Origin: a virus
Taxonomy: Duplodnaviria > Heunggongvirae > Uroviricota > Caudoviricetes
Strand: one strand, 5' to 3'
DNA: 18,616 bases
Virus record (IMG/VR): IMGVR_UViG_2711768037_000018
Span: 1-18,616 of that record
The stretch's first letter is position 1. Each line of letters begins with the position of its first letter. This document shows positions 1 through 16,840 of the stretch, piece by piece. The notes beneath the pieces were generated by a model. The model had not been told where the DNA came from. It made no database searches and saw only the letters and a program-made list of their open reading frames with translations. The position numbers were made by a program, and so were the translations under genes.

Positions 1-540
1 ATTGGTGAGTCCGGGGATTACGGTTTGCCCGTGCTGTTCAAGGCGTTCAATTCTCGCCAGTAGCTGAGGCTTCTTAATTTTTCCCCAGCGATTAAGCAGG
101 CGGCCTGACATGCTGGCAACATCCTTCTCTTTCATGTACTCCAGCATTACGGCATTTCTCTCTTCTTCAAATTGACGATGACCAACCTGAAGCATGGCGT
201 ACATCCAGTTGAATGCGTTGATGTAAGCAATTTTGATACGCATTGCTTCTTTTTTGGTGTAGGACATAACCAAAAGCATCAACCCATCCTTGCGGAGACG
301 GTAGAATTTTTGCGGCTTACCATTCTGTAACTCATTGTTTTTATAGCAAAGCTCAAAGTTGAGCTTTGTATCAAACTCAGGAGGGCAAGCTTCTATGGTT
401 CGTTCAATGTCACGAACCACGTTCTTCGGCAGCTTTCCAAATGCTTTTGCCACCATAAAAGAATCTGTAACCGGATCGTTGTTTGCTACAAAAATTAGGT
501 CTCTGAAATCTATATCGTTAACAACGGTTGGGTAGTTCAT
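1..540 (-). CDS. Rha-family phage regulatory protein, partial (ATG at 538-540; C-terminus lies beyond window start)
   Basis: Minus-strand ORF open to position 1; translation begins MNYPTVVNDIDFRDLIFVANNDPVTDSFMVAKAFGKLPKNVVRDIERTIE, a Phage_pRha-like motif resembling the N-terminus of the 4021-4743 protein. Not in the ORF track because it is truncated by the window edge. Confidence 0.65.
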   Translation of the reverse strand, partial: MNYPTVVNDIDFRDLIFVANNDPVTDSFMVAKAFGKLPKNVVRDIERTIEACPPEFDTKLNFELCYKNNELQNGKPQKFYRLRKDGLMLLVMSYTKKEAMRIKIAYINAFNWMYAMLQVGHRQFEEERNAVMLEYMKEKDVASMSGRLLNRWGKIKKPQLLARIERLEQHGQTVIPGLTN

Positions 541-685
541 TGCGTCTTTACCTTTTAGAAAGATGAGCCTGTTCGCACAGAAAAGCCGCCCCGAGATGGT
601 CGCCACCATATACGGCAGTTCTCAGGCTCAGCTTTCTGAAAGACTCGGGATTGTTACGCGCTGCGATGCGCGGTTTACTGCAGAT

Positions 686-711
686 ATAAAAAAGCCCCGC
701 GAATGCGAGGC
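686..711 (-). terminator. Rho-independent terminator downstream of Rz
   Basis: On minus strand: GCCUCGC-AUUC-GCGGGGC stem-loop (one G-U pair) followed by UUUUUU. Confidence 0.5.
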
Positions 712-885
712 TAAATCCTGGTATTTGTAATGACTGGCTCTTATCTCAACGCAGCCCCTTACCGCGCGCCAGATGCTCAATATCAAGCATCAGCAATGAG
801 ATGTTTAATCTGGATTCACTCCAGAAGTGATCACCACCCTGTCTACAGAGCCAGATGTGAAGGATGATGAGTAAAATTATCGCTA

Positions 886-1353
886 TCATCGAAGGCATTG
901 CGTCCTAATGTATTCCTGAAGCGTTCTCAGTGCTGTTTGGTCGCGGATAATTCCGTCCCGGATATCGAGAACGTTTCGTCCAGCAACTGGAGAGAGTTCG
1001 ACGGTGGCATCATTGCCCATGCCGGAGGCGCTGGAGGTTTCGGCAGAGGATGGCACAGGGCATTTTCCTTTGACGAGCACCCTGCCACCATTATCAAGCT
1101 TCCGCAGAAGAGCATCATTTTCAGCTTTCGCATCAGCTAACTCCTTCGTGTATTTTGCATCGAGCGCAGCAACATCACGTTGGCGCACCTGCATGTCAGT
1201 AATTGTCGAGTTCGCCAGCTTCAGTTCTCTGGCATTTTTGTCGCGCTGCTCTTTGTAGGCGATGGCGTTATCACGGTAATGATTAACAGCCCATAACAGG
1301 CAGACGATGATGCAGATAACCAGAGCGGAAATAATCGCGGTGACTCTGCTCAT
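886..1353 (-). CDS. Rz: Rz i-spanin (inner-membrane spanin subunit)
   Basis: 155 aa with N-terminal TM helix and coiled-coil body; immediately follows R endolysin with overlapping stop/start; close match to lambda Rz from memory. Confidence 0.9.
927..1133 (-). CDS. Rz1: Rz1 o-spanin (outer-membrane lipoprotein), embedded in Rz in a different frame
   Basis: 68-aa ORF inside Rz, out of frame; lipobox-like VAGCSS, proline-rich [11 protein letters not shown] typical of Rz1. Confidence 0.8.
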
Positions 1354-1826
1354 ACCTCAATCTCTCTGACCGTTCCGCCAGCCTCTTTGAATTTTGCAAT
1401 CAGGTTGTCAGCCTTATGCTCGAACTGACCATAACCAGCACCCGGCAGTGAAGCCCAGATATTGCTGCAACGGTCAATTGCCTGACGAATATCACCGCGA
1501 TCAATCATCGGTAAAGCGCCACGCTCTTTAATCTGCTGCAATGCCACAGCGTCCTGGCTTTTCGGAGAGAAGTCTTTCAGGCCAAGCTGCTTACGATAGG
1601 CATCCCACCAACGGGAAAGAAGCTGGTAGCGCCCGGCTGCTGTTGATTTGAGTTTTGGGTTTAGCGTGACAAGTTTGCGAGGGTGATCGGAGTAATCAGT
1701 GAATAGCTCTCCGCCTACAATGACGTCATAACCATGATTTCTGGTTTTCTGACGTCCGTTATCAGTTCCCTCTGACCACGCCAGCATATCGAGGAACGCC
1801 TTACGTTGATTATTGATTTCCACCAT
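1350..1826 (-). CDS. R: Endolysin R (lytic transglycosylase)
   Basis: 158 aa [39 protein letters not shown]..., essentially lambda R as recalled. Confidence 0.95.
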
Positions 1827-2133
1827 CTTCTACTCCGGCTTTTTTAGCAGCGAAGCGTTTGATAAGCGAACCAATCGAGTCAGTACCGATGTAGCCGATG
1901 AACACGCTCGTTATATAAGCGAGATTGCTACTTAGTCCGGCGAAGTCGAGAAGGTCACGAATGAACCAGGCGATAATGGCGCACATCGTTGCGTCGATTA
2001 CTGTTTTTGTAAACGCACCGCCATTATATCTGCCGCGAAGGTACGCCATTGCAAACGCAAGGATTGCCCCGATGCCTTGTTCCTTTGCCGCGAGAATGGC
2101 GGCTAACAGGTCATGTTTTTCTGGCATCTTCAT
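1810..2133 (-). CDS. S: Holin/antiholin S (class I holin with dual start)
   Basis: 107 aa starting [10 protein letters not shown] (Met1/Met3 dual-start motif of lambda S107/S105); overlaps R start. Confidence 0.95.
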
Positions 2134-2424
2134 GTCTTACCCCCAATAAGGGGATTTGCTCTATTTAATTAGGAATAAGGTCGATTACTGATAGAACAAA
2201 TCCAGGCTACTGTGTTTAGTAATCAGATTTGTTCGTGACCGATATGCACGGGCAAAACGGCAGGAGGTTGTTAGCGCAACCTCTTGCCACCCGCTTTCAC
2301 GAAGCCAGCCATTGAGCTGGTTTTCTTTTATGCAAAGCACACCGCACCGTAGCCACAGCGGATAAGGTGATTATTTTTGTCTGTCTGGTATTTGGTTTGA
2401 TGTGCTTTCAGAAAGGCCGTGCTT

Positions 2425-15295: not shown

Positions 15296-15978
15296 GCAAG
15301 ATTGACTATCAGGCACTGCGTGAGGCGGCAGAGAAAGCCGGTGAAGATAAGTGGCAGGCTAAAAAAATAAATGGTGATTTTTTCGTTATTCGTCACGGTA
15401 GTTATACAAGACAGCATGGCTACACATCGTATCAACCCATTGCGGAGATTGATTGTAAGCCAGTCCGGGACTTTGTTGCCAAGGCTAATCCGGCTACCGT
15501 GCTGGAATTACTGGATGAGCTGGAAGCAGCAAAAAAGCGCATTGCAGAACTGGAAGCCGAACCTGTAAGCCAAGCTTACAACTTGCCAGAATTAATCGAA
15601 GGCATGGAAGTTTCCATTGATGTAAGTACTTGTGATGCTGATTTAGGTAATCGCTATTTCGGCACCGTAACCGAGGCGTTAGAACTTGATACTGCCAAGA
15701 ATGGTTACATCCTCCTGGTTCAGGACGCAGAGCCAAACTTCGATGTAAATGGCAACTCTCCGGTAACTACGGATGGTTGGATAAGCTGTAGTGAGCGAAT
15801 GCCTGATGATGGTCAGCGCGTAATTATTTTATGTGATGGTGCATCCGTTCTTTATGCGCAATATCGAGACGGTGAGTTTTTTGATGTCGTCCGCAATGGT
15901 GAGGAGTTCTTCGAAACGCAGAGCCGCAATGTAACCCACTGGATGCCGCTACCGGAACCGCCGCAGGAGATGAAGTAA
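15292..15978 (+). CDS. DUF551-domain protein (Ea22-like N-terminal region)
   Basis: 228 aa; GTG start with GGAGG SD; C-terminal ...THWMPLPEPP... characteristic of DUF551; N-terminal coiled coil AAKKRIAELEAE. Confidence 0.7.
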   Translation: MSKIDYQALREAAEKAGEDKWQAKKINGDFFVIRHGSYTRQHGYTSYQPIAEIDCKPVRDFVAKANPATVLELLDELEAAKKRIAELEAEPVSQAYNLPELIEGMEVSIDVSTCDADLGNRYFGTVTEALELDTAKNGYILLVQDAEPNFDVNGNSPVTTDGWISCSERMPDDGQRVIILCDGASVLYAQYRDGEFFDVVRNGEEFFETQSRNVTHWMPLPEPPQEMK

Positions 15979-16256
15979 TGGACTCCTTCGCGAAATATAC
16001 GATTATTGACTGGATTGCCTTCCTTCAGGTTTTGCTCATCTGGTTTTATATGGCTTACAGGAGTGGACAGTGGATTGTCAGTGTAGCCTGTAGCAAGGGA
16101 TGGCGTTGGTGGAACCGAAAGAATAAAAAAGCACTGGCATTGGATTCATTTTACGAAGCATTCAATCTTAACAGCCTTCAGCCTGGTTCTGTCATTGTAG
16201 TCACCACTCAAAGCGGCATGACCATTCAGATTCATAAACCAAAAGAGGAAAAATGA
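15978..16256 (+). CDS. Hypothetical protein (92 aa) with one hydrophobic segment
   Basis: TM-like IIDWIAFLQVLLIWFYMAY; start overlaps upstream stop. Confidence 0.5.
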   Translation: MDSFAKYTIIDWIAFLQVLLIWFYMAYRSGQWIVSVACSKGWRWWNRKNKKALALDSFYEAFNLNSLQPGSVIVVTTQSGMTIQIHKPKEEK

Positions 16257-16342
16257 TGTGGCCTATATGTGTTAATTGCGGACGGATGTGCCTATCTGGA
16301 TGGTGCCGAAAGTGCGACAAATGCACGAAGCAAAGACAATAA
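16253..16342 (+). CDS. Hypothetical Cys-rich mini-protein (29 aa, not in ORF track)
   Basis: MMWPICVNCGRMCLSGWCRKCDKCTKQRQ; AGAGGAAAA precedes ATG; ATGA overlap with upstream ORF; zinc-ribbon-like Cys spacing. Confidence 0.3.
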   Translation: MMWPICVNCGRMCLSGWCRKCDKCTKQRQ

Positions 16343-16414
16343 CAATCCTCGCACTTGCGGGGATTTCTTTTATCTGAACTCGCTACGGCGAGTTTTGTTT
16401 TATGGAGATGATAA

Positions 16415-16582
16415 ATGCACTTCCGAGTCACAGGTGAATGGAATGGAGAACCATTCAACAGAGTTATCGAAGCAGAGAACATCAATGACTGCTATGACCA
16501 CTGGATGCTATGGGCGCAGATAGCACATGCAGACGTAACCAATATTCGAATTGAAGAACTGAAAGAACACCAAGCCGCCTGA
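16415..16582 (+). CDS. Hypothetical protein (55 aa, not in ORF track)
   Basis: MHFRVTGEWNGEPFNRVIEAENINDCYDHWMLWAQIAHADVTNIRIEELKEHQAA; GGAG 7 nt upstream; stop lies within an intrinsic terminator. Preferred over the overlapping 84-aa track ORF 16269-16523, which has no ATG start. Confidence 0.4.
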   Translation: MHFRVTGEWNGEPFNRVIEAENINDCYDHWMLWAQIAHADVTNIRIEELKEHQAA

Positions 16583-16595
16583 TGGCGGTTTTTTA
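16574..16595 (+). terminator. Intrinsic terminator
   Basis: GCCGCC-TGAT-GGCGG hairpin followed by TTTTTTATT. Confidence 0.65.
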
Positions 16596-16639
16596 TTGCC
16601 TGATTTGCAGGTTCGATTCCCTATTCGGAGATAGCACTC

Positions 16640-16840
16640 ATGCAACACGAACTACAGCCTGATTCACTGGTTGATTTGAAATTCATCATGGCCGATACTG
16701 GCTTCGGTAAAACCTTCATCTATGACCGGATTAAGTCCGGGGACCTGCCTAAAGCCAAAGTTATCCACGGGCGAGCAAGATGGTTATATCGTGACCATTG
16801 TGAATTCAAAAATAAGCTCTTAAGCCGCGCCAATGGGTAA
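16640..16840 (+). CDS. AlpA-family DNA-binding protein / putative excisionase
   Basis: 66 aa; ADTGFGKTFIYDRIKSGDLPKAKVIHGRARWLYRDHCEF resembles AlpA/Xis-type HTH proteins; GGAGA SD. Confidence 0.7.
   Translation: MQHELQPDSLVDLKFIMADTGFGKTFIYDRIKSGDLPKAKVIHGRARWLYRDHCEFKNKLLSRANG

Follow-up and report, generated by a model that had tools for sequence, protein, structure and literature searches.

The 18,616 nucleotides of IMG/VR virus record IMGVR_UViG_2711768037_000018 analysed here (the window) very probably carry ~17 kb from the right-hand side of a temperate Escherichia coli prophage of the lambdoid kind, its early, replication, late-control and lysis half; judged from its sequence, the element belongs to the HK620/Sf6/KplE1 group, occupies the argW site and joins known parts in a new combination. 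The backbone is probably best named HK620-like (P22-like, genus Lederbergvirus, argW-integrating), because only P22-like phages reach both ends of the window, rha follows the lysis genes and the closest prophage has P22-type morphogenesis genes. A first-pass annotation, made from the sequence without database searches, had described the stretch as a mosaic lambdoid prophage. That core interpretation is supported and the observations behind it are confirmed in part; it is correct but unremarkable, the element being an ordinary mosaic.

Gene order in the window (open reading frame [ORF] map, Pfam and PHROG matches) is that of lambda-like modules: a pL arm (N, recombination, xis), an immunity region (cI/cro with divergent promoters), cII, replication, nin, Q and lysis, collinear with the annotations of lambda (NC_001416), P22 (NC_002371) and HK620 (Lederbergvirus HK620; NC_002730). 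The prophage lies reversed in the window. The pR operon runs leftward on the minus strand through cro, nutR, cII, orf53, an initiator gene with internal origin, a helicase gene, the nin region, Q, pR'/qut/tR', S-R-Rz/Rz1 and rha; cI and orf98 run rightward from pRM; and the pL operon runs rightward through nutL, N, accessory genes, cIII, kil, RecT, ea genes and xis, ending at the right attachment site, attR.

The right end of the prophage is defined by three features (coordinates are those of the window, with the strand in brackets; aa, amino acids):

16640-16840 (+): excisionase, or recombination directionality factor, 66 aa; 66/66 identical to E. coli K-12 TorI and 100% identical to HK620 HkaC.
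16914-16928 (+): attR core CTGCAGGGGACACCA, 15 nt, the exact 3' end of tRNA-Arg argW; equal to K-12 pawZ (attR) and to the HK620 attP core.
17369-18616 (-): cscB sucrose permease gene, host flank outside the prophage (Pfam LacY_symp, 642 bits; cscB or oligosaccharide major facilitator superfamily transporter in matching genomes).

The core lies 74 bp downstream of the excisionase gene and comprises only the 15-nt 3' end of argW, with no tRNA gene. Similarity to HK620 (98.5%) and to the K-12 cryptic prophage CPS-53/KplE1 (97.3%, 16590-16928) stops at 16928, which is the true right prophage end (the first-pass annotation had ended the prophage at 16840); the last 1.7 kb of the window are host DNA. 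A TorI/HkaC-type directionality factor adjoining an attachment core identical to the argW 3' end is the mark of the HK620/Sf6/KplE1 group. The recombination module is conserved in KplE1, HK620, Sf6 and CUS-3, with a core given as 16 nt (Panis et al., PMC2951348). The attP core of HK620 lies between hkaC (xis) and int, and in K-12 intS and torI stand at opposite ends, intS beside argW (argW-intS...torI-pawZ). Since attP in this group separates xis from int, int is placed at the far prophage end and is absent from the window; the missing integrase is thus to be expected by analogy with these relatives and would be no sign of decay. The first-pass annotation had correctly noted that the window has neither integrase nor structural genes.

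KplE1 has the same attR arm, an identical TorI and the same argW-derived core, but at 10 kb it is a remnant in which the immunity, replication and lysis modules are lacking, and its right flank is dsdC whereas that of the window is the csc locus. In E. coli MS20674 (CP082062), part of the ~440-bp spacer between attR core and cscB (16929-17368) carries the annotation of a DUF4942 fragment; the spacer differs from the K-12 attR flank on the dsdC side, consistent with a variable argW-dsd island. The record of vB_EcoP-683R2 (ON470594, deposited as a complete phage genome) includes cscB, cscK, cscA and cscR (20606-24853) beyond an argW-type attachment core. That record suggested that the phage might carry the csc genes as cargo, placed between xis and int. 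This idea was rejected, because resemblance to HK620 and KplE1 ends exactly at the attachment core and because, in one complete genome, the csc locus continues into the host genes dsdA-emrYK. The csc genes of ON470594 are probably host flank from a prophage-derived assembly.

Within these limits the element is a patchwork. DNA shared with lambda falls in six patches (85-99% identical), and many further patches match HK620 and P22; near-identical patches of this kind are what lambdoid phages recombine through. HK620 has the same gene order from rha to attP and the same nutL, nutR and attP core; DNA identity to it is 97% over 2432-4918 (Q through NinF), 98% over 5664-7569 (helicase and C-terminal half of the initiator), 99% over 8188-8620 (cII, nutR), 97-99% over 10240-10706 (pL transcript start, nutL, N) and 98.5% over 16535-16928 (xis, attP arm). 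Identity to HK620 breaks at the iterons (7569), at the end of cro/nutR (8620), near the pL start (~10240) and at the N stop codon (10706). Further joints were mapped upstream of Q (3200) and inside Rz (~1109). All fall at gene or domain boundaries, where the modular-evolution model predicts them, in agreement with the first-pass statement that modules had been exchanged where that model expects. Most modules tested have relatives 92-100% identical in coliphages or prophages (lambda, HK620, vB_EcoP-683R2 and a phage converting its host to production of Shiga toxin [Stx] 1a), and such a patchwork is the normal state among lambdoid prophages. HK620, described in 2001, already joins lambda-type Q-S-R to this N and this helicase.

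Long stretches of the window are 96-99% identical to HK620, vB_EcoP-683R2, lambda or the Stx1a-converting phage Stx1a_10051 (LC744178), as they would be in a copy of a phage already described. Such a copy should, however, show uniform identity to one record, the outcome that the first-pass annotation had said would make this a known prophage, and none was found. Of 724 matching phage records, those with the highest coverage are vB_EcoP-683R2 (59% of the window), mEpX2 (48%) and HK620 (45%), at ~96% identity; among 5,426 complete E. coli genomes coverage reaches 71% at most, and no record in either collection covers 80% or more. The pL arm is an especially fine patchwork, in which no E. coli genome covers more than ~80% of 1.5-1.7-kb sub-windows, while single pieces are 95-99% identical in thousands of genomes. 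A copy of a described phage is therefore highly improbable, and the combination of modules is unrecorded in the phage-record and complete-E. coli collections searched. It is improbable, too, that the backbone is that of a lambda- or HK97-like siphovirus and not of a P22-like podovirus. The late-control and lysis genes are lambda-identical, and the siphovirus lambdoids mEpX2, HK140, HK633 and HK022 share 39-48% of the window, but their matches are interior ones that stop at 1237 and at ~15324-16600. Only P22-like relatives (683R2, 611R6, Kapi1, HK620) match both window ends: rha and the sequence downstream of the lysis genes (536-1237) on the left, and the xis-attR end on the right. Characteristic of the HK620/P22 group are a rha gene right behind the lysis genes and an attP that separates xis from int, and the closest prophage, that of MS20674, carries P22-type terminase, portal, scaffold and capsid/coat genes directly left of rha.

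Nor is the element likely to be a defective (cryptic) remnant like CPS-53/KplE1 instead of an inducible phage, although this alternative keeps some weight: the K-12 remnant occupies the same site with identical torI and attR, the close relative in MS20674 has a disrupted helicase gene, and the window shows no structural genes. Against it, all ~38 window genes are full-length and collinear with those of functional phages (HK620, lambda), the regulatory sites are intact, and no pseudogenes or insertion sequence elements were seen in the window. A tRNA scan found no tRNA genes there.

Several points weigh against the reading preferred here, an HK620-like temperate prophage. Neither structural genes, integrase nor attL lie in the window, so that P22-like morphotype and completeness rest on relatives, and the siphovirus lambdoids mEpX2, HK140 and HK022 match nearly as large a part of the early region. 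Functions are assigned throughout by homology, and the promoter and terminator calls are consensus matches. The putative pR matches the sigma-70 consensus at only 8 of 12 positions, was missed by the sigma-70 scan and is placed by analogy with pL; the candidate third site at OL is weak (two mismatches) and comes from direct reading of the sequence. An Rfam scan of the window at gathering thresholds returned zero matches, with no known small RNA family for the oop, late-leader or cIII region, so that the oop and late leader RNAs are positional assignments.

The immunity region comprises the following:

8232-8510 (-): cII, lysogeny activator (Pfam Phage_CII, 142.8 bits; 100% identical to HK620 cII, 85% to P22 c1).
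8234-8266 (+): oop-like antisense terminator overlapping the 3' end of cII (terminator consensus).
8464-8477 (+): CII box of pRE, TTGC-N6-TTGC, at the start of cII (pattern scan).
8620-8844 (-): cro, encoding a YdaS-like helix-turn-helix (HTH) protein of 74 aa from a Met preceded by AGAGG (Pfam YdaS_toxin, PF15943, 63.6 bits; cut-off 30).
8878-8943 (strand not applicable): OR region, with OR1 at 8881-8894, OR2 at 8906-8919 and OR3 at 8930-8943, all perfect ATAAC-N4-GTTAT, spaced 24-25 bp; pRM side toward cI.
8906 to 8878 (-): putative pR, TTGCTA-17-TATCTT.
8956-9663 (+): cI repressor (HTH_3, 29.5 bits, and Peptidase_S24, 63.9 bits, both above cut-off).
9704-10000 (+): orf98, small membrane and coiled-coil protein of 98 aa in the rex position of the cI operon (phrog_18389, function unassigned).
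10005-10024 (+): tImm-like terminator at the end of the cI operon, with 87% identity to the sequence immediately downstream of rexB in lambda.
10154-10239 (+): OL/pL region, with OL1 at 10223-10236, OL2 at 10198-10211, the OL3 candidate at 10154-10167 and pL, TTGACC-17-TATCTT, at 10211-10239.

The operators are of a non-lambda type, as first noted: ATAAC-N4-GTTAT with at most one mismatch occurs five times in the 18.6 kb against 0.4 expected by chance, and all five sites are at OR or OL. pL and pR are built in parallel, O1 lying between the hexamers and O2 abutting the -35 hexamer. With three OR sites, two OL sites and the weak third, the region has the tripartite operators of lambdoid phages. 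The cI product contains an Ala-Gly dipeptide (SLSAGSG) and a GQSMEPT motif and is predicted to be of the LexA-like, RecA-cleavable type. The YdaS-like character proposed for cro is borne out by its Pfam score. Further TTGC-N6-TTGC matches at 10761 and 12336 were rejected as chance occurrences (four found against 1.6 expected; 16/200 shuffles reached four).

The cassette from cro to OL (8620-10240; cro-OR-cI-orf98-tImm-OL) is distinct from those of lambda, P22 and HK620. In HK620 the cI, cro and operators (ATACC-N4-GGTAT-like) are unrelated; Cro has no significant similarity to HK620 Cro, and cI matches HK620 cI only over a 40-aa HTH. The distinct immunity reported in the first-pass annotation stands in that sense, but the cassette is not new, being present already in Stx1a-converting phages and in the MS20674 prophage. 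Its cI is 99.6% identical to that of Stx1a_10051 and ~85% identical to the repressors of a dozen other Stx1a phages; only four phage records have a cI at least 95% identical. Cro is 100% identical in Stx1a_10051 and MS20674. Positions 8019-10706 are 98.5% identical to Stx1a_10051 (3820-6508), with all five operator cores kept and the sole operator difference in the OL1 spacer. The shared segment holds orf53, cII, nutR, cro, OR, cI, orf98, tImm, OL, pL, nutL and N; elsewhere this 54-kb Stx phage differs (helicase 32% and initiator 24% identical), and the window has no stx genes.

The predicted product of orf98 has a hydrophobic helix at its N-terminus and a tail that is a charged coiled coil, and the gene sits between cI and the tImm-like terminator, the position of lambda rexAB. 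It is 99-100% identical in Stx1a_10051 and MS20674, travelling with the immunity cassette, and has no Pfam match. A PADLOC scan of 10 unassigned ORFs including orf98 gave only sub-threshold noise (E ~0.001-0.01), and no known defence system could be named from it. orf98 is a candidate lysogen-expressed exclusion gene.

On either side of this cassette lie the components of early antitermination:

8567-8612 (-): nutR, boxA CGCTCTTTA and boxB hairpin TCCCGCCGAAATGCGGGA (sequence and fold; stretch 99% identical to the annotated HK620 nutR region).
10285-10326 (+): nutL, boxA GGCTCTTTA and boxB TCCCGCCGAAATGCGGGA (sequence and fold; two differences in ~200 bp from the annotated HK620 nutL region).
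10434-10706 (+): N antiterminator, HK620 type, arginine-rich motif NARNRRRARRQAQREQ (Pfam N_peptide, 58.4 bits; cut-off 27.9).

The boxA at both sites is (G/C)GCTCTTTA and the boxB hairpin is identical. An arginine-rich N together with boxA/boxB after both pL and pR points to N-type antitermination of the P22 gp24/phage 21/HK620 N family. The resemblance to P22 gp24 first reported for N holds at that level: both fall in the same Pfam family, with N- and C-terminal motifs in common, and N has no match to lambda N. In sequence, though, it is only 36% identical to gp24 and 98% identical to HK620 N (88/90 aa).

The replication module contains:

5681-5704 (-): tR2-like terminator between the helicase gene and ninB, inside a segment (5215-5734) 96.9% identical to lambda.
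5733-7169 (-): DnaB-family replicative helicase, the "P" of HK620/HK022 type (Pfam DnaB, 107 bits, and DnaB_C, 204 bits; 100% identical to HK620 P, 31% to P22 gp12).
7159-8049 (-): "O-like" replication initiator, 296 aa (phrog_345, "replication initiation O-like", E 1e-84).
7558-7675 (-): origin iterons within the initiator gene, two clusters of three 11-bp direct repeats (TTGTCCAACGG).
8036-8197 (-): orf53, small conserved ORF between cII and O (100% identical in 683R2, Stx1a_10051 and MS20674; no Pfam match).

An iteron-bearing initiator followed by a DnaB-family helicase had been recognised from the start, and the module is not of the lambda O/P kind: the initiator has no similarity to lambda O, and the second gene encodes a helicase and not a P-type loader. 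In using such a helicase the element resembles P22, and a P22-type label is apt at the family level. It goes no further: besides the low helicase identity, the initiator matches P22 gp18 at the C-terminus only (25%, E 2e-4), with an unrelated N-terminus, and neither N nor the replication genes match P22 at the DNA level. The initiator is 66% identical to HK620 O overall, with a near-identical C-terminal half and an N-terminal half of another specificity (45% diverged from HK620); it is 99% identical to the 683R2 and MS20674 proteins, and its N-terminal half and iterons match both at 96-99%. An AT-rich stretch (~7520-7565) follows the iterons, and the iteron region is the likely origin by analogy with the rep_origin annotation of HK620. 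HK620 (10369-10464) has the same two-by-three architecture of 11-bp iterons with a ~33-bp gap, but its repeat is TTACCAGCARA; the recombination joint with HK620 is exactly at the iterons, between the initiator specificity domain and the helicase-interaction domain. In the MS20674 prophage (CP082062, 18945-21410) the DnaB-like helicase gene is split by a ~1-kb insertion into two annotated pseudogene halves; the window copy is intact.

The nin region (3187-5656, -; all Pfam matches above cut-off) encodes:

5216-5656 (-): NinB (99% identical to lambda; 39% to HK620).
5046-5219 (-): NinD (96% identical to lambda).
4903-5079 (-): NinE (55% identical to lambda).
4736-4906 (-): NinF (95% identical to lambda).
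4021-4743 (-): Roi, KilAC/pRha antirepressor-like (98% identical to HK620).
3731-4021 (-): YbcO (98% identical to HK620).
3372-3734 (-): RusA resolvase (99% identical to HK620).
3187-3375 (-): NinH (100% identical to HK620).

The lambda NinC, NinG and NinI are absent, with RusA, YbcO and Roi in their place; NinB is followed directly by NinD, as in P22, and HK620 differs in its NinB, which in the window is of lambda type, and in NinD, which the window has. NinB, NinD and NinF deserve the near-identity to lambda first claimed for NinB and NinD-F, but NinE does not, and the NinD-F DNA is 84.8% identical to lambda. NinE is 52-55% identical to the NinE of lambda, P22, HK620, 683R2 and MS20674, a one-gene mosaic patch between lambda-like neighbours. 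An ORF at 4736-5197 (153 aa) considered as NinB was rejected, having no similarity; the region consists of the overlapping NinD, NinE and NinF.

Late control and lysis are represented by:

1-540 (-): Rha-family regulator, 180 aa, frame-0 translation, stop codon just beyond the left window end.
693-712 (-): intrinsic-terminator-like hairpin downstream of the lysis cassette (consensus scan only).
886-1353 (-): Rz i-spanin (Pfam Phage_lysis, 107 bits).
927-1133 (-): Rz1 o-spanin lipoprotein, inside Rz in the +1 frame (Pfam Rz1, 67.6 bits).
1350-1826 (-): R endolysin, lambda-type transglycosylase (155/158 aa identical to lambda R; 99% to HK620 R).
1810-2133 (-): S holin/antiholin with dual-start motif MKM (106/107 aa identical to lambda S; 99% to HK620 S).
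2434-2462 (-): tR' late terminator, P22-type, a 13-bp stem then a T run (fold -22.2 kcal/mol, z -4.1).
2496-2524 (-): pR' late promoter, TTGACT-17-TAAATT, then the qut region (near-identical to lambda and P22 in alignment).
2567-3190 (-): Q late antiterminator, lambda Q type (204/207 aa identical to lambda Q; 98% to HK620 Q, 97% to P22 gp23).
2890-2903 (+): TTGC-N6-TTGC CII box antisense in Q, placed like lambda paQ and P22 a23, with a corresponding putative function.

A Q-family protein, pR'/qut immediately downstream and a strong terminator hairpin, the last of P22 sequence, indicate late antitermination of the lambda Q type. Here the first-pass annotation, which had called the whole set from Q to Rz/Rz1 near-identical to lambda, fared unevenly. 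It was right for Q, S and R, and for the pR' hexamers and qut. The late leader and tR', by contrast, are P22-type: in a three-way alignment tR' aligns with that of P22 and not with that of lambda, and the short leader, like that of P22, is without ~190 bp of the lambda leader, in two blocks; lambda identity resumes ~170 bp upstream of S. The spanins are not near-identical at all. Rz shares 65% identity with lambda Rz and 92% with HK620 Rz, its first ~83 aa being lambda-like and the remainder HK620-type (lambda DNA identity within the gene begins at 1109); for Rz1 the figures are 95% against the HK620 region and 45% against lambda Rz1. The endolysin of P22 is of another type, with no match.

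The Rha-family gene, missing from the earlier account, stands directly after the lysis cassette, as in P22. Its product is 91% identical to Rha of the MS20674 prophage and 56% to P22 Rha, and DNA 1-169 is 92% identical to the 3' end of P22 rha. A hydrophobic ORF of 50 aa (746-898, -) overlaps Rz at its 3' end, and the annotation of vB_EcoP-683R2 has an ORF in the same place.

The remainder of the pL operon (10707-16582, +; accessory and recombination genes, from Pfam, PHROGs and identities) includes:

11945-12079 (+): cIII.
12064-12216 (+): kil.
12606-13508 (+): RecT.
13486-13974 (+): Gp157-like.
15292-15978 (+): Ea22 and DUF551.
Within 10707-16582 (+): orf75, orf156, orf82 (PHROG "anti-restriction"), orf103, orf104, orf92 (DUF5405), DUF2737, orf185, DUF4752 and the lambda p35-like orf55 (lambdap35).

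RecT replaces the exo/bet/gam of lambda, and RecT/Gp157 stand where HK620 has Sak4/SSB/Abc2; most ea genes also differ from those of HK620. The regulatory architecture remains that of lambda, with orf55 among the proteins (Q, S, R, NinB, NinD, NinF) 95-99% identical to lambda; N, cI, cro, the operators, O and P are unrelated to their lambda counterparts, and integration module and site differ. P22 differs further in immunity and attachment site (thrW).

Modelled by homology on the lambda, P22 and HK620 paradigm, a LexA-like cI bound at the ATAAC-N4-GTTAT operators of OR and OL would keep pR and pL silent and maintain lysogeny, and its self-cleavage, triggered by the SOS response, would free both promoters. 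N would then antiterminate at two nut sites with one common boxB, a cII/cIII branch would drive pRE and paQ, and the initiator on its six 11-bp iterons would recruit the phage's own DnaB-type helicase. Late in the cycle lambda-type Q would modify RNA polymerase at pR'/qut, allowing transcription to pass the P22-type tR' and reach the genes for the lambda-type holin and endolysin and the hybrid spanins, and the TorI-identical excisionase, with an IntS-type integrase from the other prophage end, would excise the element.

The window is a textbook case of lambdoid modular exchange, with joints at the borders of the immunity region, at the iteron/domain boundary of the initiator and inside Rz, and its importance is mostly limited to correct annotation. 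The predicted cross-immunity with an Stx1a-converting phage, which follows from the repressor and operators common to the window and Stx1a_10051, is of modest epidemiological interest. We tentatively suggest, as a possibility open to considerable doubt, that the cassette (8620-10240) is exchanged as one block between Stx1a-converting phages and prophages of P22-like podoviruses, that the argW prophage makes its host homoimmune to a specific Stx1a phage, and that orf98 is an exclusion or abortive-infection protein. If so, a harmless argW prophage would protect its host from lysogenic conversion by a specific Stx1a phage, and a common repressor pool could couple the induction of both.

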